Shown piece after piece: positions 9,456 through 26,200 of a stretch of 37,358 nucleotides of DNA; the first letter of the stretch is position 1; every line of letters begins with the position of its first letter. The notes below the pieces were generated by a model that saw only the letters and a program-made list of their open reading frames with translations, had not been told where the DNA came from and made no database searches. This DNA is from an uncultured Gammaproteobacteria bacterium (GTDB lineage: Bacteria; Patescibacteriota; Patescibacteriia; Magasanikbacterales; UBA922): positions 1 through 37,358 of the forward strand of contig CAYPPF010000006.1 in NCBI GenBank assembly GCA_964412535.1, read 5' to 3'. A program made the translations under genes and the position numbers.

Positions 9456-10523
9456 CTAGTTGACAGCTTTCTTGATGGCCCAGATGCCGAGTCCGAGAAC
9501 AGCACCGCCGGCACCACCAATCGCAGCACCAACACCGCATCCGGAGGCCTCATAATCGCCATCGCTGTCAATACCACCTGATCTTGCACCCCAGCCTATA
9601 CCACAGCCACCACCAGCTCCAATGCCGGCGCCGATTGCAGTATATGCCAGCCATTCGACCGGGCTCCCGTCTTCCTCCTTGAAATCCGGAGAGAAGGTGG
9701 GGTTGGTATCGACGTACTGATACTGGTATGCGTCGACGTACTCCGCACGGAAAGCGCGTCCGAGCAATTGCTCTTCCGCGGCTTTGCTAGTGGCGTTGTA
9801 GTCGGTTGATGATCCAGCATGGTGCTCCCTACGCTGTTTGCGCGTCTGACGCAAGGCCGCAGACTCTGCAGCATCCGTCTGACGGAGCATAACTCGCTCA
9901 CCAGAGGTGACGCTTTCGTCTTTAGGAGCCATACTTTCCCGGGTAGCCAGTCCGTTGCCAGCACTTGCGATCCAGGATCGCGGCACACAACGAACCGTCG
10001 CAGTGCCCACAATATCTGTACTGGGATCGTGGCACCAGGCACCATCTGCAGCGTCTACTGCCTTAGTGTTGGTGGCTCTCGTTTCATCCAGCTCATCCTG
10101 GCCAGCCCTACGTTTGCCGTGTTCTTTTGCGGTCCCATTGACCATGGGGATTGTCCCCGTCTCGCACTTCTTTGCACCCGTGGCATCTTCACCGTCCTTA
10201 CCTTGCCACACGGGCTTAGGCAAACTTCCATCCTGCACCACGCAGGTGACGAGACATGGTTCTGGACCACAGGTGTTTTTCGGTGCAGTCGCACTGTTGG
10301 CTCTTGCCTGCAGACCAGCACCGACACCCGGGGAATTGGAGCCTGTCTGGCCCTGGGTGTTTGTTGCAGCGGAATTGCTGGCTCCTCCAGAAGATCCGGA
10401 GCTGGAAGTACCTCCACCACCCTGAGCCAAATCTGGATCAGGCAGTGCGGTTTGTGGGCCACCTGTGGCACAACTGGTTAACAGAAAAACTCCGATAATC
10501 AAACCTACGATCTTTGCCTTCAT
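9456..10523 (-). CDS. Lipoprotein with a C-terminal glycine-zipper (SlyB/Pcp 17-kDa-antigen-like) segment
   Basis: Start chosen at MKAKIVGLIIGVFLLTSC (lipobox LTSC), preceded by GGGAGGAGaatgtc. A Gly/Ser-rich linker follows. The C-terminus is AIGAGIGAGGGCGIGWG...GCGVGAAIGGAGGAVLGLGIWAIKK. Confidence 0.7.
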   Translation of the reverse strand: MKAKIVGLIIGVFLLTSCATGGPQTALPDPDLAQGGGGTSSSGSSGGASNSAATNTQGQTGSNSPGVGAGLQARANSATAPKNTCGPEPCLVTCVVQDGSLPKPVWQGKDGEDATGAKKCETGTIPMVNGTAKEHGKRRAGQDELDETRATNTKAVDAADGAWCHDPSTDIVGTATVRCVPRSWIASAGNGLATRESMAPKDESVTSGERVMLRQTDAAESAALRQTRKQRREHHAGSSTDYNATSKAAEEQLLGRAFRAEYVDAYQYQYVDTNPTFSPDFKEEDGSPVEWLAYTAIGAGIGAGGGCGIGWGARSGGIDSDGDYEASGCGVGAAIGGAGGAVLGLGIWAIKKAVN

Positions 10524-10833: not shown

Positions 10834-10898
10834 GTTTAAAAAGGGATAAAAACACAAAATTGGCTAAAATAAGCCAATTTTTACTGTTTTTCTACTAC

Positions 10899-10926
10899 AA
10901 AAGGCCGGTTTCCCGGCCTTTTGTTG
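10899..10926 (-). terminator. Rho-independent terminator of the giant-protein operon
   Basis: Minus-sense AAAAGGCCGGgaaaCCGGCCTTTTGTAG, immediately after the stop at 10931. Confidence 0.7.
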
Positions 10927-10930: not shown

Positions 10931-13900
10931 TTACTCTACTTTAGCAGCTCCCCCAGCATTTGATTGATCTTTTTCTGCTTCTTCTTTCTCTTTCTTGGAA
11001 AAATGCCTGATTGCTGCATCTTGAAAACTCTTTTCTAGATTGATTTGGAGACCTATTTTAAACTCAATATACTGTTTTTCAGGAGAAAGAGTACTTCTAC
11101 CTGATGGCACAAATTGAACACCTAAAATTCCCGCATCAAACTTGTCTAAAGAACTTCTCACTTTTGCCCACCCTTTTTCATCTTTTCTATGCTCTTCTAA
11201 TCCTGACGAAAAATTACGCAATGCACCCACTTGTCTTTCTAACAAATCTTTCCTAGTTTCCTTAAACCATTTTCTAGCCCATTCCAGTTGAGGAGCATTC
11301 ACCTTCTTGCTCTTGGCCGAACCCCTAACTAAGGATTCTAATTCACCAGGAGTAGTTAATAGCTTCTTTCCATGGCGCAAGAATGAAGCATAGTTTTCAG
11401 CCTCTTGTTTATCTGCCTTACTCCACTCTGAGTCATCTATTAAATTTTCTACTCTGTCTATCCCCTCTCCATATCCATCTGACTCTTCTTTTGGCTCTTC
11501 AGGAAGATGATGGTGTTTTACTTTTTCCCACCTATCCTCCAATGACATTGGCGTTTCGTGCGGTTCAATTTCACTAGTATCAATTTCTGGTTGATTAAAT
11601 TCTTGATCATCTACTGATTGTGTTCCACCTTTCTTTTTCTCTTCTTTTTTCTTTCGCTTCTTACGAGGTGACTTAGTTTTCTTTTTCTTTTTTTCTATCT
11701 TCTTTTTCTCTTCTTTCTCTGCCTCTGCTTTGACCTTGGCTTCTGCCTCTGCCTTCATTTTGGCTTTAACTTTCCCAAGCTTTTCTAAATCTTCTATTCC
11801 ACCATCTACTTCCATTCCTGTTCCCTCTATTCCTCCCCTGTCTACAAACAAGTATGGATCCTCATCTTCGCCCACATCTACATCTTCTGGATGATATTCG
11901 TGACCTGTCTTCTGTTTTTCTTTTCCTTCATGATCAAACTTCTTTTCAAAACTAGCTCCCCATATTACAACTGCAGCTATGCCAGCAGCCCAAAGTACTT
12001 TCTTCAATCTACCACCCCATTTCTTTGCTTTTTTAGTACCTAATTTTTTCTTTAACTCTGCCCTAGCCCTATCCAGTTTAACGCCTATCTTTTCTTTTTC
12101 AGGCTCTACTGATTCTGGATAGTGTCCTTCTACCGATGAAGGTGGAGGTCCATCTATTGATTCTAGTTTGACTCTAGTTACGAATTCCTTAAGAGCCTCA
12201 TTAAAATCTGTATTTCTTTCATATACATGTCTTCCATCATTAGCCTGACTGGCAAACTCACCCGTCTCCTTGTTGTATTCGCCATGCATTATATATTCAA
12301 TGGCAGGTGCACCATCAGGAGTATCCGAAGGCATTATCAGTGTATATTTTATTTCAAATTCCTCAGTATCTGGATTACTGACAAAGTTAAGTTCTGGCCC
12401 TTCACAATCTTCTATCCCCACACCAATCTCTTCCCTGTCAAAAGCATGAAAAACCTTTGCTTCACTATCATATGAACCCAATTCTCCTATTCTTTTTGCT
12501 ATTAGTTCTCCTTCCTTCCATTTACCTTCTTGTGGAAGCTCTCCTGAAACCTCCTTGATACCTTTACCGTCTAACACAACACCCTTACCAGTAATATATC
12601 TTACTAGACCGGTTAATTTAGTATCAGAATCCACCATAAAATCTGTAGCCCTTGCCAAAACAATTATGTCATCCCTATACTCCCCTTCCAAGATGCTACC
12701 ATCAGGGAATATCTTTTTACCATTAATAAACTTCCCATCTACAAAGTTACCTTCAAACTCTGTTGCACCAGGAAACTTTTGTTTACCTTGACCATGTAAT
12801 ACCCCCTCTTTCCATTTACCCTCCCTAGTACCATTACTATCTTCCACTTTTCCTTCTGATAACATCCCCTCCACAAATATACCTTCAGCTGTAAAGGGAG
12901 GATTTACAGAATTGTGTTTTCCTTCTCCCTCAAGAACTCCATCTTTCCAAACACCTTCAAAATATGAACCATCTGGAAATTCTAGTTTTCCCTGCCCCTT
13001 ACTTGGTATTTGTTCTCCAGCTCTTTCAACAGCCTTTCCTGTATACGTACCTCCAGCAAAATCTATACCCCCTTGTTCTCTTGCAGTTTCTCTTGCTTTT
13101 TTGTCAGCAGGCTCCTTTACCTCAAGCTTTCTTTCTATTGGGCTTGATTCAGGCGGAGGAGGAGGTCCAACAGGAGGAGAAGTTGGTGGTTCTACTTCAG
13201 TGCCAGGAACAGGAGGGGGCTCGACCACTGTACCTTCAGTAGCGGCACGTGTACTTGCCCTTTCTGTACTTTCAATCTGTATAACTTCTAGACTAATTTT
13301 CCCCTGCAACTCTTTAAGAGGATTTACTACTTCTTCTCTTATTCTAGAAACAATCCATTGCAACCTAGGCACCAAAGTCTTTGCTCTTTTTTTAGAATCT
13401 GAATACCAGGTAATGTAATTTAGGGTTTCCAACATTGCTTCAGTAATCAAGACATCTTTTTCTGAAATAGAAGATACTTGTCTGGCCAAAGTTTCATAAT
13501 CAGGATGACTAGCATCATCTAACTTTTGGACTCCCTTAAACAACTCGTCTTCTCTAGGAAAAACTTCTTTGTTAATTATCTCACTAAAATCACCCAAAGA
13601 AGTCTCGAAGTCTTCTTTCCTTTTTTCTAAATAAGATTTTGCCCCACCATCAGCATTCCATATCAATGTCTTCCACATCTGTTCTATCTTTTCACTTGTA
13701 AGCTCATCTTCTACTTCTACTAAATTAAACCCATCTAATTTTTCATACTCTTCAGGCCCTACAAACTCCTCTAATTCTTTTTCTATTGGATCAGGGTCTG
13801 AAACAGTAGAAGCATCTGGACTGAGTACACCTCCAAAATGTGTAATCTCTGATTCCGTACTTCTAACAATTGTTTCGTAATCGGCAACAATATCTCTTAT

Positions 13901-16900
13901 CCTACCCATACCAACCTTAAATAATCTTGACAAGCCCAGCTTTGCTTTCTTTCTTGAACTAGCAATATTAGGTGTATTATTTAACATGCCCTCTAAAAAA
14001 TCAGTCAAATCCACTTCCTGAGCTTCAATATAGCCTCGGCGTTCTTGAAAAACTCTCGCTCTGTTCGCCCCCGCCTTGTCATTAATTTCCTGGATATTAG
14101 TAGTCAGACGTCCTTTGAGAGGAAGCACTCTTTCACCATGTTTTCTCTTTAGCTCTCCCACAAACTGAGCAAAAATCTTTTTCTTGTCTCGTAAATAAAA
14201 TCTGACTACCGCACTTGATGCCTCTACTAACCTATCCCAAATCTCATTCAATTTCTCAATTGTAAGCTGTGAAAGTAAATCTTCTAAATTTCCATTAGAC
14301 TCTAACTCTTCATACTCAGGCTCAGTGGGTTCTTCTGGTTCAGATTCTTCACCAGATGAATCTAAGGTTGGTGGAATTACTTCAAGAGACTTGTGGTACG
14401 GGTTATACCCTGCTGGTTCACCACCTTCTGCCACTGAAGCAGGAGTTTCCTCTTCAGGAACATCCGGGACAGATTCTTTATCTGACTCAGTGAGCAGTCC
14501 TAACAAGTATAAATTACTTTCAGTCTTTTTATTAACCCACCTGACCATTTCCCATCCCATTATTAATAGATGTTCAAAGCCATCTTTCACCTCTTCTCTT
14601 GAAACAGCTATCTCCTGAATATTATTTAATCTTCCAGTTATATAATCAACTCTTTCTTGTTCTTCATTTATTTCTGCCTCATAATCTTTGTATATTCCAC
14701 CATCTAATTCATTTTTTTTCATATATTCCAACAACTGTTCCCTTGATGTGCTACTTTTTTCTTCTGCATCTCTCATTCCTTCGACAAACTTCTTGAAATA
14801 TTTTTTCAGACCTAATAAATGAAGTTTAGCTGCTATTCCTGATGCCTCCCTTAATCTGCCCCAAATTTCATCCACCTTCTCACCTGTAAGTTGGGCTAAT
14901 AGACCTTTCAACCCTTCACCAGATTTTAACTCCACATACCCTGATTCATCTGGCTCAGGTACCTCCACAGAAGGAGGAATTGTTTCTGCTGGCTCGACCA
15001 CTTCATCTCCAGATAGTACATCTGCTTCATCTTCACCATCATCTGACACTTCCCATTCAGAATCACCGAAACTATCAACAAACTCCTCAGGTGATTCTCC
15101 CAAAGCCAAAGCAGCCTCTGTTGGTAGTACCACCTCGGCAACACCAGCAAGGTCTTCAGTGCGTGCTTTTAGGATTTCCCACTCATCATTCTTATTTTCC
15201 TCTTCCATTACTTCCTTATATATCTCTATAAGTTTATCTGCAAAACCATCTGGCAATTTATCTTCTAAACCAGGTTTTTGTGATAAGGCACCTCTTAGCG
15301 CAGTGGCAGCCCCCTCTAGTGCAAATATATTTATATTTCCATCTTCTAATCTTTCCCAATTGCTCTTAAACCGATCCATGTGTAAACCATATAAATATTC
15401 ATCAGGACCTTCTATGTCTCTTGGCTCTGGTGCAGGTGGTTCATCATCAGGTGACTCTGTCCCCTCTACTAGCTGCCCTCCTGCCATTTTTCCATCACCA
15501 AGATCAATTGCTCTATGACGTGGTGGACCTGTTCTTGGCTTTACATCTAAAGGAATTGTTGGGACTGTTGGATCCTCATCATCAAAATCATCAAAGGTCT
15601 CTTCATCAAACCCAGAAACAGCCTCTTCAAAGATCCTGTCTGCGTCTTCTGTCGGTGTTAAGTCAATATCTGAATCATCTTCTTCATCCCCCAACAACTC
15701 TTCTGCATCTTCCACAGCTTTCCTTAAACGATCCGGGTCACTAGCTTGCTCAGATCTAAGACGACGATATAGTGCAACTAACTCGGGTACTTGATTTTCA
15801 ACTTCGTGCTGGAGGTTGACCTTGTTCAGCTCATCATCAATCTCATCCTGAGTATAGCCCCCTACTAATTTAAATTCTTCTTTGACTAGTTCGATAAACC
15901 TTTCTGTTACCTGTCTTAACAGACCAGACCAACCATCTATATATTCTTCTACTTTGGAAAGTTCTACTACCTCGTCTAGTCCTTTCTCCACCATGTCCCT
16001 TCTCAAAACAGGTACATTCAAAGGTTCATTATTTTCAACAAAAATATCAACCATCTCATACACCCTGTCTAGCATTCTCCTAACTTGTTCTTTTTTATTT
16101 CTTACCACCTCATCTTCCACCTCAACTGGTTCTTCTTCTGGCACTGCTTCCGGTTCTGGATCAGGAGGACTAGACATATCTTCAGCTTGTTGTAATAAAT
16201 CTTCAAATACTTTCTCATCAATACCCCTTTGTACGGCGTATGTGACTAAATCTTGCATTCTAGACTTTACTAAACTAGGATTTCTAAAACCAAACTCTTT
16301 TATAATATCCTCAGCAGCTGTCAAAAAGACAGTCTCACTAAGATCCAAATCTGTATCCACTCTTTCATTAGCATATCTCAAAGCTTCATCAGCTGATTCA
16401 ATATAGCCTATACCTAAATTCTCACTAAAAGCTCTTTGAATGAGTGCTTGCTCAGGCCAATCCATTAATATGCCTTTGCCAGCATAATAATCTTCAATTC
16501 CAGTAACTTTTTCATAATGGAACAAACCCCCTCTAAACAACTTATCTCTTTCTCCCTCTAAGTATTCTTTGCTAATCTCTACATCCAATGAAAGATCATT
16601 TATTATTTGTTCTAATGCAGGCAGATGTGCATCTTTCTCTCCATTCCAAAATCGAGCATTAAGTATAGAATTGCTATGCCTATTTTTGATAAACTCTCCA
16701 ACTTGCTTTCTAGCCTCTGGATGTTCTTGTAATTTTTCAAGTGTTTCCCTTATATCAGCAAATCCTTCTAAAATAGTTTTTTCATCAGTATCACGTAATT
16801 TTCTTGAACCAAATTTCTCTTCTAATTCTTTTAGCATTCCTTTTACTTCTTCACTTAACTCCACTTCCTCTTCTGGAGGAGAGACAACTGGTTCTGACTC

Positions 16901-18157
16901 TTCAGGAAGATCCTCTGGTACACTTTCTTCTTCCCTTTCTCCCTCTAATACAACCTCTCTTTTAAGAATCTTTTCTCCAAGTCTTTGTACTTGCAATCGT
17001 AAGGCTGGTATCTTCTCTTTTTCAATTACTCTCTTTATCTCTTCTAATTCTTCTTGTATTTCCTTTAATCTTTCTGAAGAAGCCTTATCAGTCTCATGCC
17101 TCAACCCTACAACTCTGTTTCCAATTTCTTTCCTTCGTGCCACAGGATCAACTACTGTCATCATCTCTCCCTCTTTCTGTCTAATATCGTTATCTATTTC
17201 TTCTAGCTCTCTTGATAGTAGTATTCTTGAATCTTCACTTAACTCCACTTCCTCTTCTGGAGGAGAGACAACTGGTTCTGACTCTTCAGGAAGATCCTCT
17301 GGTACACTTTCTTCTTCCCTTTCTCCCTCTAATACAACCTCTCTTTTAAGAATCTTTTCTCCAAGTCTTTGTACTTGCAATCGTAAGGCTGGTATCTTCT
17401 CTTTTTCAATTACTCTCTTTATCTCTTCTAATTCTTCTTGTATTTCCTTTAATCTTTCTGAAGAAGCCTTATCAGTCTCATGCCTCAACCCTACAACTCT
17501 GTTTCCAATTTCTTTCCTTCGTGCCACAGGATCAACTACTGTCATCATCTCTCCCTCTTTCTGTCTAATATCGTTATCTATTTCTTCTAGCTCTCTTGAT
17601 AGTAGTATTCTTGAATCTTCACTTAATTCAGCCACTTGAGCAACTAGACCTTCCCATGTTTCTTTCACTGTTTTTAACTTGTCAGCACCAATTGTATCAA
17701 TTTCATTTTTAAGGAGCTCGATCTGTCCTTTTATCTCCCCAATCTCCTTATCTATGGCAGCATCTGGTACTTCTTCTACCCCCTCTTCAACAGGAGCCTC
17801 TTCTGGGGTAGACTCTTTTTTAACCAGCTTTACCACCTCTTTTTCCATCACAACTTCCTCTATCATCCCCCTTATTTCTCTACGCTGAGGACTAGTAAGT
17901 TTTACTATAGCTCCCTTTCCATACAGCATGGACAGTACATCATTAACTACTTCTATGCCAATCTCTTCTCTTACTACTAATTCGCCTGTACTAGGATTTA
18001 CTTTTGGTTCGCCTGTACTAGGATCCTCTGTGTACCACTTCCATTTAAGGTTAGGGTTGTGTTTGTTCTTTTTTAAGAAAGCAGAAAGAATAGGTTTCAG
18101 TTCTTGAAACTTTTCTTCATTCATTATCATTCTGCGTTGTTTCTGTTCCTCTGACAT
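10931..18157 (-). CDS. Giant (2408 aa) acidic, coiled-coil-rich MORN-repeat protein with one predicted TM helix and a Lys-rich tail
   Basis: Uninterrupted ORF. MORN-like YxGxWxxGxxxGxG units are encoded at about 12490-13060 (GKLEFPDGSYFEGVWKDGVLEGEGK, GKWKEGVLHGQGKQKFPG...). The hydrophobic segment VLWAAGIAAVVIWGASF is encoded at about 11947-12006. A KKKIEKKKKKTKSPRKKRKKKEEKKK stretch follows. There is a 1-nt gap to the upstream gene. Confidence 0.85.
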   Translation of the reverse strand: MSEEQKQRRMIMNEEKFQELKPILSAFLKKNKHNPNLKWKWYTEDPSTGEPKVNPSTGELVVREEIGIEVVNDVLSMLYGKGAIVKLTSPQRREIRGMIEEVVMEKEVVKLVKKESTPEEAPVEEGVEEVPDAAIDKEIGEIKGQIELLKNEIDTIGADKLKTVKETWEGLVAQVAELSEDSRILLSRELEEIDNDIRQKEGEMMTVVDPVARRKEIGNRVVGLRHETDKASSERLKEIQEELEEIKRVIEKEKIPALRLQVQRLGEKILKREVVLEGEREEESVPEDLPEESEPVVSPPEEEVELSEDSRILLSRELEEIDNDIRQKEGEMMTVVDPVARRKEIGNRVVGLRHETDKASSERLKEIQEELEEIKRVIEKEKIPALRLQVQRLGEKILKREVVLEGEREEESVPEDLPEESEPVVSPPEEEVELSEEVKGMLKELEEKFGSRKLRDTDEKTILEGFADIRETLEKLQEHPEARKQVGEFIKNRHSNSILNARFWNGEKDAHLPALEQIINDLSLDVEISKEYLEGERDKLFRGGLFHYEKVTGIEDYYAGKGILMDWPEQALIQRAFSENLGIGYIESADEALRYANERVDTDLDLSETVFLTAAEDIIKEFGFRNPSLVKSRMQDLVTYAVQRGIDEKVFEDLLQQAEDMSSPPDPEPEAVPEEEPVEVEDEVVRNKKEQVRRMLDRVYEMVDIFVENNEPLNVPVLRRDMVEKGLDEVVELSKVEEYIDGWSGLLRQVTERFIELVKEEFKLVGGYTQDEIDDELNKVNLQHEVENQVPELVALYRRLRSEQASDPDRLRKAVEDAEELLGDEEDDSDIDLTPTEDADRIFEEAVSGFDEETFDDFDDEDPTVPTIPLDVKPRTGPPRHRAIDLGDGKMAGGQLVEGTESPDDEPPAPEPRDIEGPDEYLYGLHMDRFKSNWERLEDGNINIFALEGAATALRGALSQKPGLEDKLPDGFADKLIEIYKEVMEEENKNDEWEILKARTEDLAGVAEVVLPTEAALALGESPEEFVDSFGDSEWEVSDDGEDEADVLSGDEVVEPAETIPPSVEVPEPDESGYVELKSGEGLKGLLAQLTGEKVDEIWGRLREASGIAAKLHLLGLKKYFKKFVEGMRDAEEKSSTSREQLLEYMKKNELDGGIYKDYEAEINEEQERVDYITGRLNNIQEIAVSREEVKDGFEHLLIMGWEMVRWVNKKTESNLYLLGLLTESDKESVPDVPEEETPASVAEGGEPAGYNPYHKSLEVIPPTLDSSGEESEPEEPTEPEYEELESNGNLEDLLSQLTIEKLNEIWDRLVEASSAVVRFYLRDKKKIFAQFVGELKRKHGERVLPLKGRLTTNIQEINDKAGANRARVFQERRGYIEAQEVDLTDFLEGMLNNTPNIASSRKKAKLGLSRLFKVGMGRIRDIVADYETIVRSTESEITHFGGVLSPDASTVSDPDPIEKELEEFVGPEEYEKLDGFNLVEVEDELTSEKIEQMWKTLIWNADGGAKSYLEKRKEDFETSLGDFSEIINKEVFPREDELFKGVQKLDDASHPDYETLARQVSSISEKDVLITEAMLETLNYITWYSDSKKRAKTLVPRLQWIVSRIREEVVNPLKELQGKISLEVIQIESTERASTRAATEGTVVEPPPVPGTEVEPPTSPPVGPPPPPESSPIERKLEVKEPADKKARETAREQGGIDFAGGTYTGKAVERAGEQIPSKGQGKLEFPDGSYFEGVWKDGVLEGEGKHNSVNPPFTAEGIFVEGMLSEGKVEDSNGTREGKWKEGVLHGQGKQKFPGATEFEGNFVDGKFINGKKIFPDGSILEGEYRDDIIVLARATDFMVDSDTKLTGLVRYITGKGVVLDGKGIKEVSGELPQEGKWKEGELIAKRIGELGSYDSEAKVFHAFDREEIGVGIEDCEGPELNFVSNPDTEEFEIKYTLIMPSDTPDGAPAIEYIMHGEYNKETGEFASQANDGRHVYERNTDFNEALKEFVTRVKLESIDGPPPSSVEGHYPESVEPEKEKIGVKLDRARAELKKKLGTKKAKKWGGRLKKVLWAAGIAAVVIWGASFEKKFDHEGKEKQKTGHEYHPEDVDVGEDEDPYLFVDRGGIEGTGMEVDGGIEDLEKLGKVKAKMKAEAEAKVKAEAEKEEKKKIEKKKKKTKSPRKKRKKKEEKKKGGTQSVDDQEFNQPEIDTSEIEPHETPMSLEDRWEKVKHHHLPEEPKEESDGYGEGIDRVENLIDDSEWSKADKQEAENYASFLRHGKKLLTTPGELESLVRGSAKSKKVNAPQLEWARKWFKETRKDLLERQVGALRNFSSGLEEHRKDEKGWAKVRSSLDKFDAGILGVQFVPSGRSTLSPEKQYIEFKIGLQINLEKSFQDAAIRHFSKKEKEEAEKDQSNAGGAAKVE
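16848..17626. repeat. Perfect tandem direct repeat, 2 x 384 bp plus 11 bp, in frame inside the giant gene
   Basis: Manual comparison shows 16848-17231 and 17232-17615 are identical. They encode an identical 128-aa unit (LSEDSRILLSRELEEIDNDIRQKEG...PVVSPPEEEVE) twice. Confidence 0.95.
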
Positions 18158-18158
18158 A

Positions 18159-18356
18159 TTAATCTTGTATATCCACTATCTTCTGCAGTACACCATGAAT
18201 CTTTTCTTGATCCACTGCACTACGTATTTTAGAGGCCAGTCCCTTCTCCTGCTTCTCAATATCATCCATGCTCTTCAAAAAATCAGCATACGTTTTTTTC
18301 AAACGACTTAACTTTTCTTGCAACTCTGCTAATTCTTTTTTCTTTGACTTAGCCAT
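18159..18356 (-). CDS. Small (65 aa) charged coiled-coil protein
   Basis: ORF lies between two operon genes with 1-nt gaps on both sides. MAKSKKKELAELQEKLSRLKKTYADFLKS shows a heptad-like pattern. Confidence 0.6.
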   Translation of the reverse strand: MAKSKKKELAELQEKLSRLKKTYADFLKSMDDIEKQEKGLASKIRSAVDQEKIHGVLQKIVDIQD

Positions 18357-18357
18357 A

Positions 18358-18663
18358 TTATATAGACAAGGTTGTCTTTATCTTAGTAACTTCTTCCACT
18401 AACATGAATTGAATGTTTGGAACCTTGTACAAGAGAAAATCTTGTAACTCTTTTTGGTCATCACCATCCATTATCTGTCTAAATTCTTTTTCTAAAGTTC
18501 CTTCCAACATATCTAACAAACGCAATATCAAATTAGTGGTAACTAAATCCATTACTTTCCCCAACATATCATCTCTCTGTTCCTCAGGAAATCTATGTAG
18601 TTCCAGGACAGAGATTACTTGTTGTGTTATTTGATTATCTTGAGTCATATTATTAACGCTCAC
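18358..18663 (-). CDS. Small (101 aa) helical protein of unknown function
   Basis: The ORF overlaps the upstream 1190-aa gene by 11 nt and is 1 nt from the next gene, suggesting translational coupling. Confidence 0.6.
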   Translation of the reverse strand: MSVNNMTQDNQITQQVISVLELHRFPEEQRDDMLGKVMDLVTTNLILRLLDMLEGTLEKEFRQIMDGDDQKELQDFLLYKVPNIQFMLVEEVTKIKTTLSI

Positions 18664-21600
18664 CTTTTTTTATTTGCTCTAAACTAAGTTCTCCTTTAAA
18701 AACCTTATCTCCAATCTCTGCAACATATGTTGTGGTTGCTTTATTCAATGCACTATCTATATCAACAAAAGGAAAAACCTTTTTCTCTATTGCATAGAAT
18801 ACGAGACTGGAAAGCTTCGCTGAATAAGACACATCCTCTCCGTCTCCTGTTGCCTTATAAAAAGCATCCTTGAAAACCGCCTCATTAAAAGACAAACTTC
18901 CATCAACTCTTCTTTCTACAAAATTCTCAAATGCCTTCATCCATTCTGTTTCTCCTGTACCTACCAAACGATCAAATGTCGCTTGAGCAGTAACTATATC
19001 TATCTTTTCTAAAGGTTTTCCTTTTTTCTCTGCATATTCTTCTATCCATTCGATGGTTGGTAGTGGTGATCCTGGAGCTGACAGCTCACGTGTACGCATT
19101 CTATCTAATTCTTTATGGGAGTCCTCATTTAATTCAGGTTCTTTGCCTAGCCACTTGGTTATATCCTTATCAAGACCAGTTTTATCCACAATGCCGTCTT
19201 CAGTTGTACGCAAAAACGCTTCGTATACATTTTGGAAAAGAAGTTTTAAGGGTTGTAAATCTTCAGGAGAAATCTCAATTCCCTGTTTTTTTGCCTCGTC
19301 TAACACCACACTCACCTTTAACTTCCACCTAGGAGGAAGAGGATCTGACGCTAAAAATTGTTCTACCTCACTTCGTATATCAGATATATAGTTAGACTTA
19401 TCTTTCTCTTCACCTTTTTCTTCACCACCGGCTTCACTCTTTTCCTCTTCTACATACTTACCTAACAACATAGTTGCCCGCCTATAGTCTGTCATACCAT
19501 GCTTGTATTGATCTGCAGAAGGATCCGTGGTTTGTCCTGCTTCAGCCAAATGATCTCTTGCTTGAATCAAAAGCTCTGGCTTTAGTTCCAAGTTGATACT
19601 TCTTCCAGCTGACAAATTAACTTTCACTAATTTAGCTGCAATAACTTGATTGTTTTCTAACAAGTGATCAATTATCTGCTGAAGAGTTTCTTCAAGCTCT
19701 TTGCTACTCTCAGTACCATATGCTCTTAACAGTTCTGCTTGCAATTCATCTATCCTTGGCTTCATAGCTGCCTCCTTCTTTCCAAAATCAAAATCTGTAT
19801 CACCAGCAGCAACTTCTTTAAAAGGATCAGGAAGATTGGCAAATATTTCTTTTGCTCTTTCCACTATCCCAGCCTGGTCTTTCTTTTCAAACCTTTCGTC
19901 AAAAGTAGGCTCGGCCACTTCTAGTAGTTCATCATTTCTCCATCTTCCTACATCTAACTCTTCACCATCTTCATCAAACCATGTGCCCTGTCCCCATCTT
20001 CTTGGATGGTCTACATTGTTTTCTAAAAATCTAATATCTCCCTCATAGTAGCTACCGTCTGTATATACGATCTTTCCTTCTTCAGGCAGTACACCACCAA
20101 CGAACTTAGCTTCAACCATCTCTATCTCCGGACTATCAGGATAACTTATCGTTCCAACACCATCTGGCATACCTTCTTTATTTGTATTTCCTTCATACCT
20201 TCCTGACTCAATTACTTCCTTGGGTACCTTAGGTCCTTCTAAATCATCAGCTTCCTTCTCTTTTTTCACCTCAAACTCGGTCTCTCTTACCGAACTATAT
20301 ACCACTCCTTTCTTTTCTTTCTTACTAATTTCTTCTGCCTGTTTTGGAATATACTTACTCATCTGTTCCCACTGTTCATCAGTCAAAACAACTCCTGTCT
20401 CTTCTAATATTTTACCTAAATGAGCGCGTATCTCGTCTGTTCTCACCTGCGGGTGGTCAATGAGGTATGCTTTCACAGTCATCGCTGCAGTCAGCATATT
20501 TGTTACTGCCTCTGGGTCAAACTCTACGTCTTCAGCCATTTCCTCTTGCGCCACTTCTTTTTTGGAGGCTGCCTTAAGTCTTACTTCTGGCTCAGGCTGT
20601 TTAACCACCTGTTTCTCGTACTCTTCCCCTAAAACACCAACTTCTTTTTGTGAATCTTGCTTAATTATTTCAAAAAGCTCATGTAGCCCTTGATATGCAT
20701 CGTGCTGATTATTCTCATCCTTTTTCACAGATACCAAAAGCCTGATTATATTATCTCTCCATCTATTGCGCAACAAATCAAGATGTTCATTAGTCACACT
20801 CTTCTCACTTCTCACATCTTCCAACATTTGTTTGTACTCTCCCACAGCCTGATCAAATAACTTTGGATCAAAATCTCTCTTTTCTCTGGCTGGCTTTTCC
20901 TTTTGCACCTCTTCTTCTGTTTCCTCTTCTGGTACAAACAAATCTCCCATTCCCTCTTCTTCAAGGAATTCTTCTAATGTAGTTTCCTTCTCCTCTGGCC
21001 TTCTCCTCCAATCTCCAGGCTCTCCGATCCTAAAACTCTCCCTAAGTGCAAAAGAATCAGGGAAAACAGGAGAGGCCATTAACTGTTCTCTCACATGATG
21101 ATGGCTAATACCTTTTTTAGTAAGGCGCTGAGGTAGGCGCCATGCTCGTGGTAGATCCTCTGGATTTTCCTCCATTAATTCTAATAATTTTGCCAAAGGC
21201 AAAAATCTGTTCTTAGTCAATTGAATAAAATATTTATTTACCACTATTTCCTTTCCAGCTACATTTCTCCTCTTATCTCCTATTAATTGAAAACCTTTTT
21301 CCAAATTCCTATTAATCCATGTATCCAACTCTTCTCTTGCTTCTGGAGATTCTAACTTTCTTGCCTGTGCCTCTGCCGCGTTATGAGCACTTTTAACTCG
21401 CTGTGGATAGAAAACAAATTTAGGTCGGGCTGTTGGTCTTGTACCAGGCTTCCCTGCCATACCTTTGATAACCTTCTTTGACCAAAGTAAGTTTTCTATT
21501 TGAGTAACATATTTCTCCCCATCTTTCCCTATAATCCTTTTTAAATCCTCCTCACCGAGAACCCTTCTTTCTTCTTTTTCCAACTTTCCCAATAAATCTT

Positions 21601-22225
21601 CATACAAAGCAAAAAGCTCTACAGCACCCAACTTCTTTTCTGGAGTCTTTTCAATCTCTTCTTTTTCAACCTCAGGTTCGTCTTTGGACTCCTTTTCAAC
21701 CGGAGCTTGCTCGGGGGAAGTTTCTTCAGCTACAGGAACTACTTCTTCTGGAACTTCCTCAGGTACAATTTCATCACGCTTTTGTCTGGGCATCTCTAAC
21801 TTACCCCATTCTTGTTGTCCGCTACCAGGCCTGTCATTCCTTTTCTTTTGAGGGCGCTCTTTCTTCTTGCGAACATCTGGAGTATTTTTTTTAGCTTCTT
21901 TCTTGGGTAATTCATCAATCTGCTTTTCAGTCTCAGCAACTCCTGCCAAAGCCTCTCTAAATTGCTTTATAGCATTCCCACGAGCATCTTCAGTACGGAC
22001 AAACTTAAGGGTGCGTGCTTTTACCTGCGCTTCTTGAAGTAATTTGTCTAATTTTGTTTCTACATCTTTAGCCAAAGGCGCTGCCAATTGACTTCTCTTT
22101 CTACGCAGCCTTCTTATTATCCGTTCCAAAAGACTCAAGGCTTCTTTTTGATCCTTTATTTCTGGCACCCTTTCTTCCCCTTCTCCTCTAGGGGGTTGGC
22201 CTTTTGTTCTGTCCTCCTCGCTCAT
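18653..22225 (-). CDS. Large (1190 aa) Glu/Lys-rich MORN-repeat protein
   Basis: Uninterrupted ORF. MORN-like units are encoded at about 19925-20200 (GRYEGNTNKEGMPDGVGTISYPD..., GKIVYTDGSYYEGDIRF, GQGTWFDEDGEELDVGRWRNDEL). It begins MSEE like the 2408-aa protein. Confidence 0.85.
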   Translation of the reverse strand: MSEEDRTKGQPPRGEGEERVPEIKDQKEALSLLERIIRRLRRKRSQLAAPLAKDVETKLDKLLQEAQVKARTLKFVRTEDARGNAIKQFREALAGVAETEKQIDELPKKEAKKNTPDVRKKKERPQKKRNDRPGSGQQEWGKLEMPRQKRDEIVPEEVPEEVVPVAEETSPEQAPVEKESKDEPEVEKEEIEKTPEKKLGAVELFALYEDLLGKLEKEERRVLGEEDLKRIIGKDGEKYVTQIENLLWSKKVIKGMAGKPGTRPTARPKFVFYPQRVKSAHNAAEAQARKLESPEAREELDTWINRNLEKGFQLIGDKRRNVAGKEIVVNKYFIQLTKNRFLPLAKLLELMEENPEDLPRAWRLPQRLTKKGISHHHVREQLMASPVFPDSFALRESFRIGEPGDWRRRPEEKETTLEEFLEEEGMGDLFVPEEETEEEVQKEKPAREKRDFDPKLFDQAVGEYKQMLEDVRSEKSVTNEHLDLLRNRWRDNIIRLLVSVKKDENNQHDAYQGLHELFEIIKQDSQKEVGVLGEEYEKQVVKQPEPEVRLKAASKKEVAQEEMAEDVEFDPEAVTNMLTAAMTVKAYLIDHPQVRTDEIRAHLGKILEETGVVLTDEQWEQMSKYIPKQAEEISKKEKKGVVYSSVRETEFEVKKEKEADDLEGPKVPKEVIESGRYEGNTNKEGMPDGVGTISYPDSPEIEMVEAKFVGGVLPEEGKIVYTDGSYYEGDIRFLENNVDHPRRWGQGTWFDEDGEELDVGRWRNDELLEVAEPTFDERFEKKDQAGIVERAKEIFANLPDPFKEVAAGDTDFDFGKKEAAMKPRIDELQAELLRAYGTESSKELEETLQQIIDHLLENNQVIAAKLVKVNLSAGRSINLELKPELLIQARDHLAEAGQTTDPSADQYKHGMTDYRRATMLLGKYVEEEKSEAGGEEKGEEKDKSNYISDIRSEVEQFLASDPLPPRWKLKVSVVLDEAKKQGIEISPEDLQPLKLLFQNVYEAFLRTTEDGIVDKTGLDKDITKWLGKEPELNEDSHKELDRMRTRELSAPGSPLPTIEWIEEYAEKKGKPLEKIDIVTAQATFDRLVGTGETEWMKAFENFVERRVDGSLSFNEAVFKDAFYKATGDGEDVSYSAKLSSLVFYAIEKKVFPFVDIDSALNKATTTYVAEIGDKVFKGELSLEQIKKGER

Positions 22226-22234: not shown

Positions 22235-22852
22235 TTAAGCGATATTATATTTCCTTGCCACTGAGAATCCCATTAACACAACTCCAATTATGAATCCTAG
22301 TACTGTGTTCACCAATGCGTTTGGCCTTACTGGCCAGTTAGTAACCACTGGATTATTTACCACCTTTATCGTTACATCACCACCAACATATTCCCAGCCT
22401 TTGGCTGCTAGTGTGTCCACTGCTGCCCCGGCTAGCTGTCTAGCTTGATTTTTGCTTGTACTATATGTACTCACATTCAAAACTCCAGTACCATACACAA
22501 CTGAAGTGCTAATAGTCTTTTGCCATGCCTTTCTTTTCTTCCTCTCAGAAATATCCTCAAACTTACTCTTGTCAATGACATATCCTGGCTGACTCATTAC
22601 TTTTTCAAAAAAATCATCAGTACTCATTACTTGAGCAATATTCTCCCCCACTCTCTCTGCTGACTTGACTACCGTATATGGGTCAACTCCATAGCGAGAT
22701 TTAGAGATAATGAGAACCTGGGCATCAGCCCTGTACTCTGCAGGAAGAACCAAAGAGATCAGTAGAGAGACTATGGCCAAGACCAAGCCAGCTGCTAAAA
22801 TGAGCTTAGCTTTTTTCGCCATCGCCTTAATTGGTGATTTGCTTAGGAACAT
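22235..22852 (-). CDS. Wzz/CpsC-type polysaccharide chain-length determinant (PCP) protein
   Basis: 205 aa with N- and C-terminal TM helices flanking a soluble domain. Contains a Wzz-like LVLPAEYRADAQVLI motif. The start could instead be MAKKAKL at 22822. Confidence 0.6.
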   Translation of the reverse strand: MFLSKSPIKAMAKKAKLILAAGLVLAIVSLLISLVLPAEYRADAQVLIISKSRYGVDPYTVVKSAERVGENIAQVMSTDDFFEKVMSQPGYVIDKSKFEDISERKKRKAWQKTISTSVVYGTGVLNVSTYSTSKNQARQLAGAAVDTLAAKGWEYVGGDVTIKVVNNPVVTNWPVRPNALVNTVLGFIIGVVLMGFSVARKYNIA

Positions 22853-22901: not shown

Positions 22902-23987
22902 TCAACCTGAAACAATCTGTTTTTTAACTAAAATATCAACCTCTTCTCCCTGACGCCATACAGTGGCCACAAATTCATCTGGGGAAAGGAAAACCTGTCT
23001 AGCATTAAGGGAATTAGAAATTGGCTGACCATCTATTCCCACCAAAACATCTCCCCACCCTATCGTACTACTACTAGCCCTTGAAGGAGCATCACTAATA
23101 TACCAACCTTGTAAGGGCTGCCACCTATCCTCAAACTTCACTCCACTCACTTGGTATCCTGACCAAGGCAAACCTTGATATGATATCCTCCCTCTTTCCA
23201 ATAGGGAATCCATTTGTTCTTCTATCATCCAACCAGGTATTATCCTGCTGTTTTCATCTGATATTCCTGCTAAACCTCCCTGGCTGTCAAACAAAAGAGA
23301 GCCTTTTTCAGCATCTGGAGAAAGACTGTACAAAAAACGAGGACGCCATACAGGATATGAAACAGCTAGACTAACATTCTCCAAATCATCTGCTACTACA
23401 AACTCCCACTCACTCCCCCTGACTGACCAAAGGCCATACCCACTATCTATCCTGCTCCAATCAACAAAAGAAGCAATACGAAAACCTTGTCCACTTGTCT
23501 TTATATACAACAACCTACTAAAAGGATCATACACTGTCCTCTCCACCTTGCGAATGCTTCCCTGATAGTCAACAGCCTCCCAATTTCTTTCCTCTCCAGG
23601 AACAAAATTAGGATAGAAAGCAACTGCCCATCCATCTGAACTCAAGTATGCTGCTTCTAATACTTCTGACTTTGGCATGTAGAAACTATTGTCTACCTTC
23701 TTGTTCTTGTCATACACAGTGACTGTTCTCTGTTTTGCCTGCTTTATCATCAATGGATCAACTTTTGTCCCTGCACTAACAGAAGAGCTATGACCAACTC
23801 CAAAATATGCTGTCTCATTCACAAAAACGGGAGCTATCCAAGCAACAGTTGACAAAGAGGCTGCCACTCCGCTAATGAAAGCAAGAAAAACTACAAACAA
23901 TACCCAACGAAGACGAGCCATACGCTCATGAGTATCAATACGACAGGCTCTTGGTGGCAAGTGAGGAGGGTCTTTCTTCATATCCAT
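22902..23987 (-). CDS. Membrane-anchored HtrA/trypsin-fold-like protein with a PDZ-like C-terminus and a degenerate active-site motif
   Basis: N-terminal TM (WVLFVVFLAFISGVAASL). AEKGSLLFDSQGGLAGI aligns by eye to the GNSGGPLxDxxGxxIGI motif, but Lys sits at the Ser position. GDVLVGIDGQPI is PDZ-like. Confidence 0.45.
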   Translation of the reverse strand: MDMKKDPPHLPPRACRIDTHERMARLRWVLFVVFLAFISGVAASLSTVAWIAPVFVNETAYFGVGHSSSVSAGTKVDPLMIKQAKQRTVTVYDKNKKVDNSFYMPKSEVLEAAYLSSDGWAVAFYPNFVPGEERNWEAVDYQGSIRKVERTVYDPFSRLLYIKTSGQGFRIASFVDWSRIDSGYGLWSVRGSEWEFVVADDLENVSLAVSYPVWRPRFLYSLSPDAEKGSLLFDSQGGLAGISDENSRIIPGWMIEEQMDSLLERGRISYQGLPWSGYQVSGVKFEDRWQPLQGWYISDAPSRASSSTIGWGDVLVGIDGQPISNSLNARQVFLSPDEFVATVWRQGEEVDILVKKQIVSG

Positions 23988-24742
23988 CTTACAAAAAAGA
24001 ATAATATAATAAAATACAAAATTATGTTAGTAGACAAAAATACTATTTGTTTTTTCCACATTATACCTTGCTTACTCAAGTGAAACCTGATTAACAACTG
24101 GATAATATACCACATCCATGTAACTAACGCTCCCAGTACAAGATATCCCAAAGGTAGTAAATGTATTGCCCAAATTATTTCCCATACTGCTAAAGACAAT
24201 ATTATTGCCCATAGTACAAACTTGTGCAAGGAAAAAGAAAAATACATTTGCCAGATAATTAACGTTACTATTCCTATCAACACACTCGTTAGCAATGCAA
24301 GGGGCCAGAAAGGGATAGTCTCAAAAAAAATATCTAGTGCAAATAAAAAGGTTGCAAGCACGTATGATACAAATACCCATGACATCATTATCATCCTGCG
24401 AAAAGGCTTGGTCTCATGACTAAGCAATCCACGAAACCTGCATACCTGGCTAAAAAGAAAAGCCATTACTATTCCTGCCAATACTATTAGCAGATAGCGG
24501 AGCCCTTCCCATTCTAGCAACATTAGCAGTACAACAAAAGCCAGTCCCACTATTATCGACAACACTAAGTTTACTATCTGCCTCTCCCCTTTCTTGTTCA
24601 GTCGTATTCCTAAAAAAACTATCAACCCAAGCCAGACAACTAAAATCAACAAAACAATCCACCAAATAGGAAAAAAGTTTATTAATAGCAGAGCCACTAA
24701 ACTCATCAAACCAATTAATATGCTGACTACTAATCGTATCAT
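23978..24742 (-). CDS. Polytopic membrane protein of unknown function
   Basis: 254-aa ORF that is almost entirely hydrophobic helices. It overlaps both neighbours (10 nt and 4 nt). Confidence 0.6.
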   Translation of the reverse strand: MIRLVVSILIGLMSLVALLLINFFPIWWIVLLILVVWLGLIVFLGIRLNKKGERQIVNLVLSIIVGLAFVVLLMLLEWEGLRYLLIVLAGIVMAFLFSQVCRFRGLLSHETKPFRRMIMMSWVFVSYVLATFLFALDIFFETIPFWPLALLTSVLIGIVTLIIWQMYFSFSLHKFVLWAIILSLAVWEIIWAIHLLPLGYLVLGALVTWMWYIIQLLIRFHLSKQGIMWKKQIVFLSTNIILYFIILFFFVRWI

Positions 24743-25179
24743 ATTTCTTCCTGTACTTTGTCAATTAGACTATTAATCAAGCCAAGCGCCTCTTCTTTTA
24801 CAACTAAATCATTTCTTTCTTTCAAGGCAAGTATTCCTAGCAGGGTATTTAAATGGTCGTCTAACCTGCTTCCTGGAACACGCATCTCGAAAAAACTTTG
24901 TTCTACTGCCGAAAAAATAGCTTCATCATCAGCCTCTGTTATTTCATCCCTTAGAACAATCAAATCTTTTTCATACTTTGCTGTTACCACCATTATTGCC
25001 GCCTGTTCCTTGTATTCCAAGGCTGTTTTTCCTACTTTGCCCAACACACCACCTTTGGTATCATCAGCTTTTGACAGTAAGAGTACAACCAAAAGCACAG
25101 TGGATATTACTATCCCTAGTGCGATCAATCCGAACATTATCATGGGCCACTCAACTTTTTGCTTTTTTTGCCAAAACAT
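24739..25179 (-). CDS. Single-pass membrane-anchored protein of unknown function
   Basis: 146-aa ORF with TM MIMFGLIALGIVISTVLLVVLLL. The start could instead be the Met at 25143, which would avoid the 29-nt overlap with the upstream gene. Confidence 0.55.
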   Translation of the reverse strand: MFWQKKQKVEWPMIMFGLIALGIVISTVLLVVLLLSKADDTKGGVLGKVGKTALEYKEQAAIMVVTAKYEKDLIVLRDEITEADDEAIFSAVEQSFFEMRVPGSRLDDHLNTLLGILALKERNDLVVKEEALGLINSLIDKVQEEI

Positions 25180-26200
25180 CTTCTAAAAAAACACTTAACG
25201 CAGTTGCGACTGGAATCGCAATCAACGCCCCAAGGACTCCGGCCAGCTTAACACCTGTCAAGATGGCCACAATGATGATGATCGGGTTGAGACCGACTGC
25301 TTTTTGCATCACCTTGGGTACTATTAAATGATTTTCTAATTGTTGAATAATGATATACGCGATCAACACAATCCCTAATTTTATCAAACCACCTTGTGAA
25401 AATGCCAAGAACAAGGCTGGTATTGCTGCTAACACTGGACCCACGTAAGGGATGAACTCAAATAGGGCTGCTAACAAAGCTAGAACAGCTGCATACTTGA
25501 TGTCAAGCAAGAACAGGGCAGTGAATACTAAAACTCCAATAATCAAACTCAAGACTAGCTGCCCCCTCATCCAAGCTCCCAGCTTGTCCCGTATTCTTTT
25601 CATCAACCGGGTGCACCACGGTATATATTCATCTGGAGTGACTGAACGCAAAATCTTTTTCAAAGAATCTTCTTGTACGACCATATAAAAGGCCATCACT
25701 AAAATCAGTACTAAAGAAAACACCCCACCAAAAAAACCAGAAATAGTGGAAAATACTCCAGAAATAGTGCTCTCTACTCCAGCAGAACCTTGGGTACCAC
25801 CCTCTGAAACAGACACTCCATACCCAGACAAAGTATTTTGTACGTTATATACTCCTTCTACCACCTTCTGCCAAATATGATTATCCTGCAAACTTACCCA
25901 AAATTCACCAACATTGTCTACTAATTGAGGAAGATCTTTGGCCACTATTGGGGCTAGTAAGGCTATGGCTAGCGCCAGTAAACCAAACATTAGTATATAT
26001 ATCACTAAAACAGCCAAAGTTCTTGGTATCTTCTTTTTCTGAAACCAGTCAGCAAAAGGGTCGATCAAGGCTGCTAGGATAAGGGCGACGAATAGTAGTA
26101 GTACTATGTCTGAAATAAGGTATAATACATACAAAGCTAGCCCTATTCCCAGTATCTTGAAAATTGTCTTTGAGCTAATATTAATAACTATCTCTTGCAT
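25151..26200 (-). CDS. AI-2E family transporter (PerM/YhhT, UPF0118)
   Basis: 349 aa with a typical topology. The sequence pattern (FVALILAALIDPFADWFQKKKIPRTLAVLVIYIL ... GVLGALIAIPVA) matches this family. Confidence 0.8.
   Translation of the reverse strand: MQEIVINISSKTIFKILGIGLALYVLYLISDIVLLLFVALILAALIDPFADWFQKKKIPRTLAVLVIYILMFGLLALAIALLAPIVAKDLPQLVDNVGEFWVSLQDNHIWQKVVEGVYNVQNTLSGYGVSVSEGGTQGSAGVESTISGVFSTISGFFGGVFSLVLILVMAFYMVVQEDSLKKILRSVTPDEYIPWCTRLMKRIRDKLGAWMRGQLVLSLIIGVLVFTALFLLDIKYAAVLALLAALFEFIPYVGPVLAAIPALFLAFSQGGLIKLGIVLIAYIIIQQLENHLIVPKVMQKAVGLNPIIIIVAILTGVKLAGVLGALIAIPVATALSVFLEDVLAKKAKS

Follow-up and report, generated by a model that had tools for sequence, protein, structure and literature searches.

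A predicted three-gene cassette encoding a giant acidic protein and two small helical partners in Patescibacteria

Very large acidic repeat proteins such as HubP, FimV and TspA of proteobacteria are scaffolds anchored in the cytoplasmic membrane by one helix, and the attachment-organelle proteins of Mycoplasma give a genome-reduced bacterium the internal scaffold with which it attaches to its host. MORN arrays, as found in MORN1, the junctophilins and RSPH1, serve membrane or protein docking in cytoskeleton-like assemblies, and type VII LXG toxins have small helical partners (of the Lap/DUF3130 type) encoded upstream of them. We analysed a locus with points of likeness to each of these systems in a 37,358-nt stretch of DNA (the window; contig CAYPPF010000006.1 of GenBank assembly GCA_964412535.1) from an uncultured, ultra-small groundwater member of the Patescibacteria. 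These bacteria, which make up the Candidate Phyla Radiation (CPR), represent a large part of the diversity of bacteria; their genomes are tiny, they live attached to other cells, and most of their lineage-specific genes are unexplained. Four closely packed minus-strand open reading frames (ORFs) of the window encode two giant acidic proteins, of 1190 aa (G1190) and 2408 aa (G2408), with two small helical proteins between them. By gene order and homology, the locus is a local, expanded version of a three-gene cassette found in Patescibacteria of the Magasanikbacteria/Kerfeldbacteria neighbourhood; judged by the same comparison, the giant of the window version has retained a single hydrophobic helix and acquired a MORN block and internal repeats, and a second, unique acidic protein of 1190 aa accompanies it. 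The reading that we favour, at a probability of roughly 0.4, is that the cassette encodes a membrane-tethered cytoplasmic scaffold with two dedicated partner proteins.

Compared with the described systems, the locus appears to belong to no known kind, and homology touches only the family DUF5663 and the MORN repeats. G2408 shares with HubP, FimV and TspA an acidic, repeat-rich and membrane-anchored character; it differs from them in that it shows no similarity in sequence and no LysM or FimV C-terminal domain (Pfam), carries its anchor near the C-terminus rather than the N-terminus, and is accompanied by small partner genes. The Mycoplasma proteins HMW1, HMW2, HMW3, P65 and P200 are large, have a coiled-coil or disordered structure and contain acidic proline-rich (APR) segments (PMC11940719 among other sources). 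Eight APR-like linkers separate the modules of G2408, a resemblance that is compositional only: G2408 has no EAGR box or other Pfam match and no homology to these proteins. Apicomplexan and trypanosome MORN1, the junctophilins and RSPH1 align with aa 1696-1846 of G2408, in which, as in junctophilin, a hydrophobic helix nearer the C-terminus accompanies the MORN array. In junctophilin, however, an N-terminal array of 8 repeats is followed by a long helix and a transmembrane (TM) segment at the extreme C-terminus, whereas about 1700 unrelated residues precede the array of G2408. We rejected a junctophilin-like tether because the MORN block lies at aa 1696-1846 of 2408, the helix stands 340 aa from the C-terminus and the match covers the repeats only. 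As in the LXG systems, two small all-helical proteins are encoded immediately upstream of a large polymorphic protein; the cassette differs from them in having no WXG100, LXG, EssC or immunity gene, and in giants that are 3-10 times longer and have no toxin domain. No type VII feature (WXG100/LXG or an EssC/FtsK-type ATPase) gave a Pfam match among the window proteins scanned. An SMC/Rad50-type ATPase was rejected as well, given that neither giant has a Walker A motif or an SMC or AAA Pfam match.

A three-gene cassette and its small proteins

The four ORFs occupy 18653..22225 (1190 aa), 18358..18663 (101 aa, with a GTG start), 18159..18356 (65 aa) and 10931..18157 (2408 aa) on the minus strand. 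An earlier note on this DNA had described the quartet as one four-gene operon, and ORF calling confirmed the four ORFs as described there. Both of the 1-nt gaps that it reported are present, each with the junction sequence TAA-T-ATG. Its 11-nt overlap between the first two ORFs holds with the GTG start; with an ATG at 18648, by contrast, there is a 4-nt gap and a protein of 96 aa, the overlap then being an artefact of taking the first GTG as the start. The ATG is preceded by a Shine-Dalgarno-like motif (AGGTGA), was chosen by independent gene calls and is the more likely start. Promoter-like and terminator-like matches inside the operon were at chance level (40 against 33 ± 5 expected and 16 against 11 ± 4 expected, respectively), in agreement with the claim that it contains neither element, and the clean terminator reported downstream was found as well: a bidirectional, intrinsic-terminator-like hairpin at 10897..10924 (12 bp, 7 GC) that reads ...CCGGCCTTTTGT on both strands closes the transcription unit. 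It is followed by a second hairpin (10856-10881) and a sigma-70-like promoter for the next gene (11/12 consensus; 10833-10805).

Comparison with relatives indicates that the conserved unit is three genes rather than four, encoding a five-helix protein of the DUF5663 family, a helical protein of ~60-74 aa and a giant acidic protein (1170-2400 aa); the 1190-aa gene had no counterpart in the relatives and databases searched. Outside the window the full trio is present, in the same order, in 12 loci from several Patescibacteria lineages (L006, L011, L013, L016, L026, L084, L087, L088/89, L090/91, L092, L093 and L094), with intergenic distances ranging from a 23-nt overlap to 40 nt. In these loci homologs of both small proteins stand directly upstream of a giant acidic ORF, as would be expected of the dedicated partners that the earlier note had proposed. 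Partial cassettes were found in three cases (L004/L097, L005 and L008): L008 is without the DUF5663 gene, L005 is without the ~65-aa gene, and L004/L097 has, where the ~65-aa gene would be, an ORF of 87 aa and a protein of 422 aa (488 aa if read from the first in-frame start). Profiles of the two small proteins (A1 and A2) picked their homologs from 5,901 ORFs with zero false matches, and an order of ~100-110-aa, ~57-74-aa and giant acidic ORFs after the syntenic membrane genes was recurrent.

The usual position of the cassette is near smpB, directly downstream of genes for a polytopic protein of ~255 aa and a ~360-aa protein with a TM helix and a PDZ-like region, and often of a Wzz-like gene. 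Searching 80 SmpB-anchored loci by tblastn, we found the 146-aa, 254-aa, 361-aa and Wzz-like genes of the window syntenic next to smpB in its closest relatives. In L004-L013, L016 and L026, genes homologous to those for the 254-aa and 361-aa proteins lie ahead of the cassette, and L087-L089 have genes of matching size (266 and 339-347 aa) in the same position. A metagenome scan anchored on the Wzz-like protein yielded three loci, one of them with the cassette. Starting from seven DUF5663 proteins in databases, we found a giant ORF (799+ to 2288 aa, with no Pfam match on record) following in all seven genomic contexts and a 60-70-aa gene in between in six, that of L087 being an uncalled ORF read from the gap; the sample includes a Kerfeldbacteria metagenome-assembled genome (MAG) and one locus with a quite different neighbourhood. 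In one locus a 122-aa ORF (L011:4444-4812, minus strand), which by eye resembles DUF559/Vsr-type endonucleases, is placed between the DUF5663 gene and a 69-aa gene.

The DUF5663 gene of the window lies at 18358..18648 on the minus strand (96 aa from the ATG at 18648, or 101 aa from the GTG at 18663). Its product scores below the Pfam cut-off against PF18908 (E 0.12; 13.4 bits vs 23.7; positions 25-82 of 84), and PF18908 is matched by five of six syntenic homologs (best 7.4e-9). A profile of the homologs, with the window protein itself in the alignment, scores it at 1.7e-35. A database protein that is 99% identical (P0025) carries a precomputed PF18908.7 assignment, and of the 29 proteins that the family profile retrieved from the database, P0025 among them, 27 have a precomputed DUF5663 assignment. 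On this homology we place the 96/101-aa protein in DUF5663 (PF18908), a catalogued but uncharacterised family of which the window copy is the most divergent; this amends the earlier note, which recognised no characterised family for the architecture as a whole. The protein has the same length and the same helical build as the family. An AlphaFold2 model from a 29-sequence alignment has five helices (mean predicted local distance difference test score, pLDDT, 86), and a fold search of the model against the PDB gave no significant match (best E 2.2, TM-score below 0.3; EsxB, E 2.2, TM-score 0.24). DUF5663 has no known function, structure or described gene context in the literature searched, in which nothing relevant was found on DUF5663/PF18908, on giant proteins of Patescibacteria or on MORN repeats in the CPR. 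As far as we can tell, the link of DUF5663 to a ~65-aa protein and a giant ORF is new.

The second small gene (18159..18356, minus strand) encodes a basic helical protein of 65 aa (pI 9.2) from a family whose genes always stand immediately before that of the giant. An alignment of thirteen syntenic homologs has almost no internal gaps, and an identical protein is encoded on three groundwater contigs in ENA. No Pfam family matched it, coiled-coil noise below threshold being the only signal. From the alignment we regard the ~65-aa proteins as a new small-protein family.

The giant proteins

G2408 (10931..18157, minus strand) is a protein of 272 kDa with a pI of 4.7 and a net charge of -201 (E 15.9%, K 8.8%); G1190 (18653..22225, minus strand), which starts MSEEDRTKGQ and is encoded between the Wzz-like gene and the cassette, has a mass of 136 kDa and a pI of 5.0 (E 14.9%, K 10.3%). 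Composition agrees with the earlier description of both as Glu/Lys-rich proteins that start MSEE. G2408 has a single cysteine and G1190 none; neither has a signal peptide or a lipobox, and Walker A, LPXTG and HExxH motifs were absent from both in a motif scan.

Towards its N-terminus, G2408 carries a perfect in-frame tandem duplication of 384 nt (128 aa; 2.0 copies) at aa 177-432 (16848..17626, minus strand). The unit is single-copy in an independent metagenome contig in ENA (L001), and the true length of G2408 is therefore either 2408 or 2280 aa; the difference reflects either copy-number polymorphism or an assembly collapse or expansion, and one of the assemblies may be wrong. Comparison of fragments with the whole protein by BLASTP revealed three divergent internal repeats of ~190 aa at aa 1061-1655 (13193..14977, minus strand), with 24-49% identity among off-diagonal matches, each introduced by an acidic Pro-rich linker; a profile of these repeats had no match in the relatives' giants available at that stage. 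The duplication, the repeats and the linkers add to the earlier description. A Pro-rich tract (aa 1644-1675; 13133..13228, minus strand) ends ~20 residues before the MORN block. Further on, a Kyte-Doolittle scan marked a single Ala/Gly-rich hydrophobic helix, VLWAAGIAAVVIWGASF, at aa 2054-2070 (11948..11998, minus strand), which is flanked on its N-terminal side by a Lys/Arg-rich stretch and followed by a poly-Lys/Arg tract at aa 2129-2177 (11627..11773, minus strand). The Pro-rich segment, the helix and the basic tract thus lie where the earlier note had placed them.

The MORN block of G2408 comprises about 6 repeats at aa 1696-1846 (12620..13072, minus strand). Against the Pfam MORN model (PF02493) it scored 17.9 bits, below the cut-off of 22.5; against the PDB it matched MORN1 (6t4r) in two aligned stretches at E 5.7e-10, as well as structures of the radial-spoke protein RSPH1 and of junctophilin (E 5.7e-10 to 2e-4 overall; junctophilin-1, 2.2e-4, over the repeats only), and it matched phrog_7324 at E 6.6e-12. 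A HMMER search returned 2917 representatives at E<=1e-3 and 209 at E<=1e-10, and the 149 listed non-self matches align only in the MORN block. On these matches the block is genuine. In G1190, aa 676-789 (19859..20200, minus strand) form a degenerate block that is only weakly MORN-like. Residues 716-789 match phrog_7324 (E 9.4e-6), the block is 37% identical to that of G2408 over 52 aa (E 0.001, BLASTP), and Pfam and PDB searches did not detect it. The claim of one MORN block in each giant is accordingly firm for G2408 and weakly supported for G1190. Among the giants of relatives, no MORN repeats were found in L004, L006, L008 and L011 (partial sequences) or in L013 (complete), and none are on record for the complete giants called in database entries. 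As judged from these sequences, MORN is particular to the giants of the window organism and is not a trait of the cassette.

Outside the MORN block, the giants match no characterised family in Pfam, PHROGs, NCBIfam, the PDB, PADLOC, phage searches or HMMER, as the earlier note had supposed. PHROGs returned only the MORN family, which is of unknown function, NCBIfam returned nothing, and the PDB returned MORN proteins only; the PADLOC defence models matched neither the four proteins nor the two membrane proteins encoded upstream. An exhaustive HMMER search of the last 1200 aa of G2408 against 1.84 billion representative proteins listed, outside the MORN block, only a fragment of the protein itself. 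A word-indexed search with the 2408-aa query gave no match, its low-complexity composition having probably saturated the candidate list. AlphaFold2 in single-sequence mode modelled the last 753 aa (aa 1656-2408) with a mean pLDDT of 39.6, too poor for a fold search; in secondary structure this low-confidence model is consistent with beta-hairpins across the MORN region and with a helical setting of the hydrophobic segment.

G1190 had no match in Pfam, NCBIfam, PADLOC or the PDB, no relative among GTDB species representatives (contig scan) and no counterpart in the 80 SmpB-anchored loci (tblastn). A word-indexed database search found only its own fragment (P0001), the low-complexity composition again having probably saturated the candidate list. 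From this distribution, we take G1190 to be a lineage-specific extra gene outside the conserved cassette. Its C-terminal segment aa 1061-1150 (18776..19045, minus strand) is weakly similar to aa 554-646 of G2408 (26% over 93 aa, E 0.001; a single BLASTP comparison). With this similarity, the faint likeness of the MORN blocks and the MSEE start in common, the two giants may be distant paralogs.

The giants of five relatives (L016, L026, L087, L088 and L094) are homologous to one another (26-59% identity) and have in common a core of ~500 aa, in which three glycine-zipper hydrophobic segments are separated by helical spacers. A profile of this core, built from the same five proteins, matched the giants of L097 (the closest relative; 2288 aa; 1.2e-12), L093 (3e-10) and L011 (3.1e-8) and, over one segment, that of L013 (domain E 2.7e-5). 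The core profile did not match G2408 or G1190 (full-sequence E >= 1.6, all domain scores negative), hhalign gave a probability of 0.2%, and BLASTP, several profile HMMs (hidden Markov models) and hhalign related neither window giant to any giant of the relatives. Against the PDB, a profile of the relatives' giants gave coiled-coil noise only. G2408 nevertheless fits the slot of the cassette giant, following the DUF5663 and ~65-aa genes and being signal-less and acidic, with at least one Gly/Ala-rich hydrophobic segment. By position, then, G2408 is the equivalent of the other giants, its sequence apparently diverged or replaced beyond recognition. The N-termini of the relatives' giants are hydrophilic, charged and signal-less, and one chance-level LPxTG occurs at aa 1911 of the L008 giant. 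Most of these giants contain Gly/Ala-rich hydrophobic segments, so the hydrophobic anchor proposed for G2408 recurs across them, as glycine-zipper segments in the relatives and as an Ala/Gly-rich helix in the window.

Two further observations concern the giants of relatives. The giant of L008 (L008:3-6548, minus strand), from a Magasanikbacteria MAG, carries a Metallophos domain (calcineurin-like phosphoesterase) at aa 265-479 (E 7e-18), so that the giants exchange not only binding but also enzymatic modules. In one sub-lineage, genes for FHA-domain proteins directly follow the giant gene (L087:15593-16675, L088:15427-17385 and L089:8358-10316), a hint at phospho-threonine-dependent regulation or binding.

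Possible functions of the cassette

If the cassette encodes a membrane-tethered cytoplasmic scaffold, the bulk of the giant would be cytoplasmic, with its hydrophobic segment or segments fixing it to the inner side of the membrane, and the helical modules with their acidic Pro-rich linkers would form an extended scaffold beneath the envelope. In the window organism, the MORN block would provide a second contact, with membrane or protein. The two small proteins, whose translation is apparently coupled to that of the giant through the TAA-T-ATG junctions, would be assembly or stabilising subunits, and the membrane proteins encoded upstream would link the scaffold to the envelope. The structure of the operon, with its tight junctions, no internal terminator above chance and a strong terminator past the giant, counts for this reading, as do the conservation of the cassette, its link to membrane proteins, the signal-less character of the giants, their recurrent hydrophobic segments, the genuine MORN block and the lack of matches to known systems. 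More broadly, though we hold this only tentatively and think the odds are against it, the trio may be an unrecognised membrane-associated apparatus of one CPR branch, either a cytoskeleton-like or a host-contact structure of ultra-small episymbionts. Its giant would diversify so quickly that similarity between orthologs is lost from one related genus to another, and would take up modules freely, while the small subunits and membrane neighbours stay conserved.

Several points weigh against the scaffold. Its function is deduced from architecture only, and homology of G2408 to the other giants is undemonstrable, its place in the cassette being assigned from position and partner genes. A lone helix of ~17-20 residues would mean that the charged C-terminal part of 340 aa crosses the membrane or else that the helix does not span it, and at a pLDDT of 39.6 the model of the last 753 aa could not be used. 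In three relatives (L007, L012 and L085) the syntenic site has no cassette, and the Cys/Asp-rich repeat proteins, which in the window are encoded beyond the cassette, come directly after the Wzz-like gene; the cassette is therefore not universally required there. Finally, extreme divergence and module swapping (MORN here, Metallophos in L008) are also expected of proteins in an arms race, such as effectors and surface proteins.

We consider it unlikely that the giant is instead an exported, fast-evolving effector or host-interaction protein, with the small helical proteins as its chaperones or targeting adaptors. On this model, drawn by analogy with the small partners upstream of type VII LXG toxins, or with chaperones that shield the TM segments of membrane-inserting effectors, the membrane that the glycine-zipper segments enter would be that of the episymbiont's host cell. 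Most Patescibacteria are episymbionts, toxins that insert into membranes often contain glycine zippers, and the model would account for such segments in the relatives' giants, for conserved small partners beside a hyper-divergent giant with swapped modules (MORN; Metallophos in L008) and for the patchy presence of the cassette at the syntenic site. What speaks against export is the setting: the cassette proteins and their nearer neighbours have no Pfam WXG100, LXG or FtsK/EssC-type ATPase, the remaining window ORFs have no secretion ATPase or recognised toxin domain (at a stricter threshold), no candidate immunity gene lies past the giant, where the terminator follows directly, and the cassette is single-copy in each locus examined, at a fixed, housekeeping-type site near smpB. 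Nor did the DUF5663 model significantly resemble EsxB, FliS or other chaperones in fold (best E 2.2, TM-score below 0.3). Quite improbable, in our view, is a role of the giants as extracellular surface fibrils or adhesins that are exported by a non-classical route and organised by the Wzz-like and PDZ-like neighbours. Envelope genes (Wzz-like, Wzy_C, GT4 and AI-2E) border the locus and probably share its transcript, other large surface-type proteins are encoded nearby (the beta-helix/fn3 protein of 1188 aa and the Cys-rich repeat proteins), and the repetitive, modular build of the giants is typical of adhesins. Yet the window giants have no signal peptide, lipobox or sorting motif and the N-termini of the relatives' giants are likewise signal-less, whereas the secreted Cys-rich neighbours have clear hydrophobic N-termini; extreme charge and poly-Lys tracts also make unassisted translocation unlikely. 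An LPXTG- or Sec-dependent surface protein was rejected outright, with no LPXTG in the window giants and no signal-like N-terminus in any giant.

That the giants are a structural module of a phage or mobile element (a tape measure or tail-fibre-like protein), or else an assembly artefact or non-functional ORF, is barely credible. Phrog_7324 matches both giants and the copy number of the perfect 384-nt repeat differs between assemblies, but the PHROG match is confined to the MORN block, and tblastn against 50,697 phage genomes gave no match, so that neither these genomes nor PHROGs provided the clear match to a phage tail fibre or tape measure that would have overturned the earlier interpretation. 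The DUF5663 protein of the window has no relative in IMG/VR, in which that of a relative (P0018) gave two partial matches of 27 residues only, and no integrase or other phage gene lies nearby. Uninterrupted ORFs of 7.2 kb and 3.6 kb are well beyond chance in DNA of ~39% GC, three short, independent ENA groundwater contigs from other samples (ERZ23498963, ERZ23498905 and ERZ23499057) carry the same genes at 99-100% identity, and the synteny extends across lineages. Such probability as these readings leave would fall to something else.

Whichever reading holds, the cassette is real, conserved in a major uncultured radiation and undescribed in the literature searched. The trio gives a first functional context for DUF5663 and adds a new small-protein family and a new giant-protein family. 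Genomes of such organisms measure roughly 1 Mb. To spend 0.5-1% of a genome on one giant, to keep two partners with it and to hold it at a fixed position across lineages would point to an important structural role at the envelope, although the function could prove a mundane structural one; an exported effector would instead imply a new delivery logic in a group with no known system of that kind.

Genomic setting and neighbouring genes

The window is a piece of bacterial chromosome, in which smpB adjoins the tmRNA gene and is followed by infC, rpmI, rplT and tRNA-Asp. A scan for SmpB over one genome per GTDB species placed the organism in the Patescibacteria, and the nearest relatives were MAGs labelled Magasanikbacteria or Magasanikiibacteriota (66-68% identity), along with one mislabelled MAG at 74% identity.

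Upstream of G1190 on the minus strand lie, in order of increasing distance, the Wzz-like gene (22235..22852), a 361-aa gene whose product has an N-terminal TM helix and a PDZ-like region (22902..23987), a polytopic 254-aa gene (23978..24742), a 146-aa gene (24739..25179) and an AI-2E gene (25151..26200). These genes are co-directional, none of the gaps or overlaps between them exceeds 49 nt, and the Wzz-like gene ends 9 nt from G1190, the distance that had been reported between the operon and the envelope cluster. The same direction and such short gaps make it probable that the transcription unit reaches further upstream, taking in the Wzz-like, PDZ-like, polytopic and AI-2E genes, and that it spans nine genes, from AI-2E to G2408. 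Pfam upheld the earlier identification of the AI-2E and Wzz-like genes. We rejected an HtrA-like identity for the 361-aa protein, which has no protease domain and at most a weak PDZ-like C-terminus (PDB E 0.46). The 254-aa and 361-aa membrane proteins (window 22902-24742) have no Pfam family and are conserved as a pair next to smpB in many Patescibacteria (homologs in L004-L026), with or without the Wzz-like gene; in the ~360-aa member a PHLPP motif is conserved at the N-terminus, alongside a single TM helix and a weakly PDZ-like tail.

On the far side of the cassette, the GC content rises from about 0.39 elsewhere to 0.48-0.59 in an island at positions 3000-10500. Encoded there are two Cys/Asp-rich repeat proteins whose N-termini are hydrophobic, one of 853 aa (11% Cys, 15% Asp) and one of 643 aa (13.5% Cys), both matching Pfam Dicty_CTDC, as well as a 369-aa Gly/Ala-rich lipoprotein-like protein and a 460-aa sigma-70 factor. 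Two large minus-strand ORFs lie towards the other end of the window, one at 34558-37332 (924 aa, GC-rich, with no family match) and one at 30165-33731 (1188 aa), whose Thr/Ser-rich product has beta-helix and fn3 domains. A basic protein of 152 aa (28477-28935) with a HEWLHH (HExxH-like) motif and no Pfam match may be a small SprT-like metalloprotease. The tmRNA gene, right after smpB (26716-27115), has an unusual tag peptide, ATAIATMILNTGSAV, as predicted by ARAGORN.

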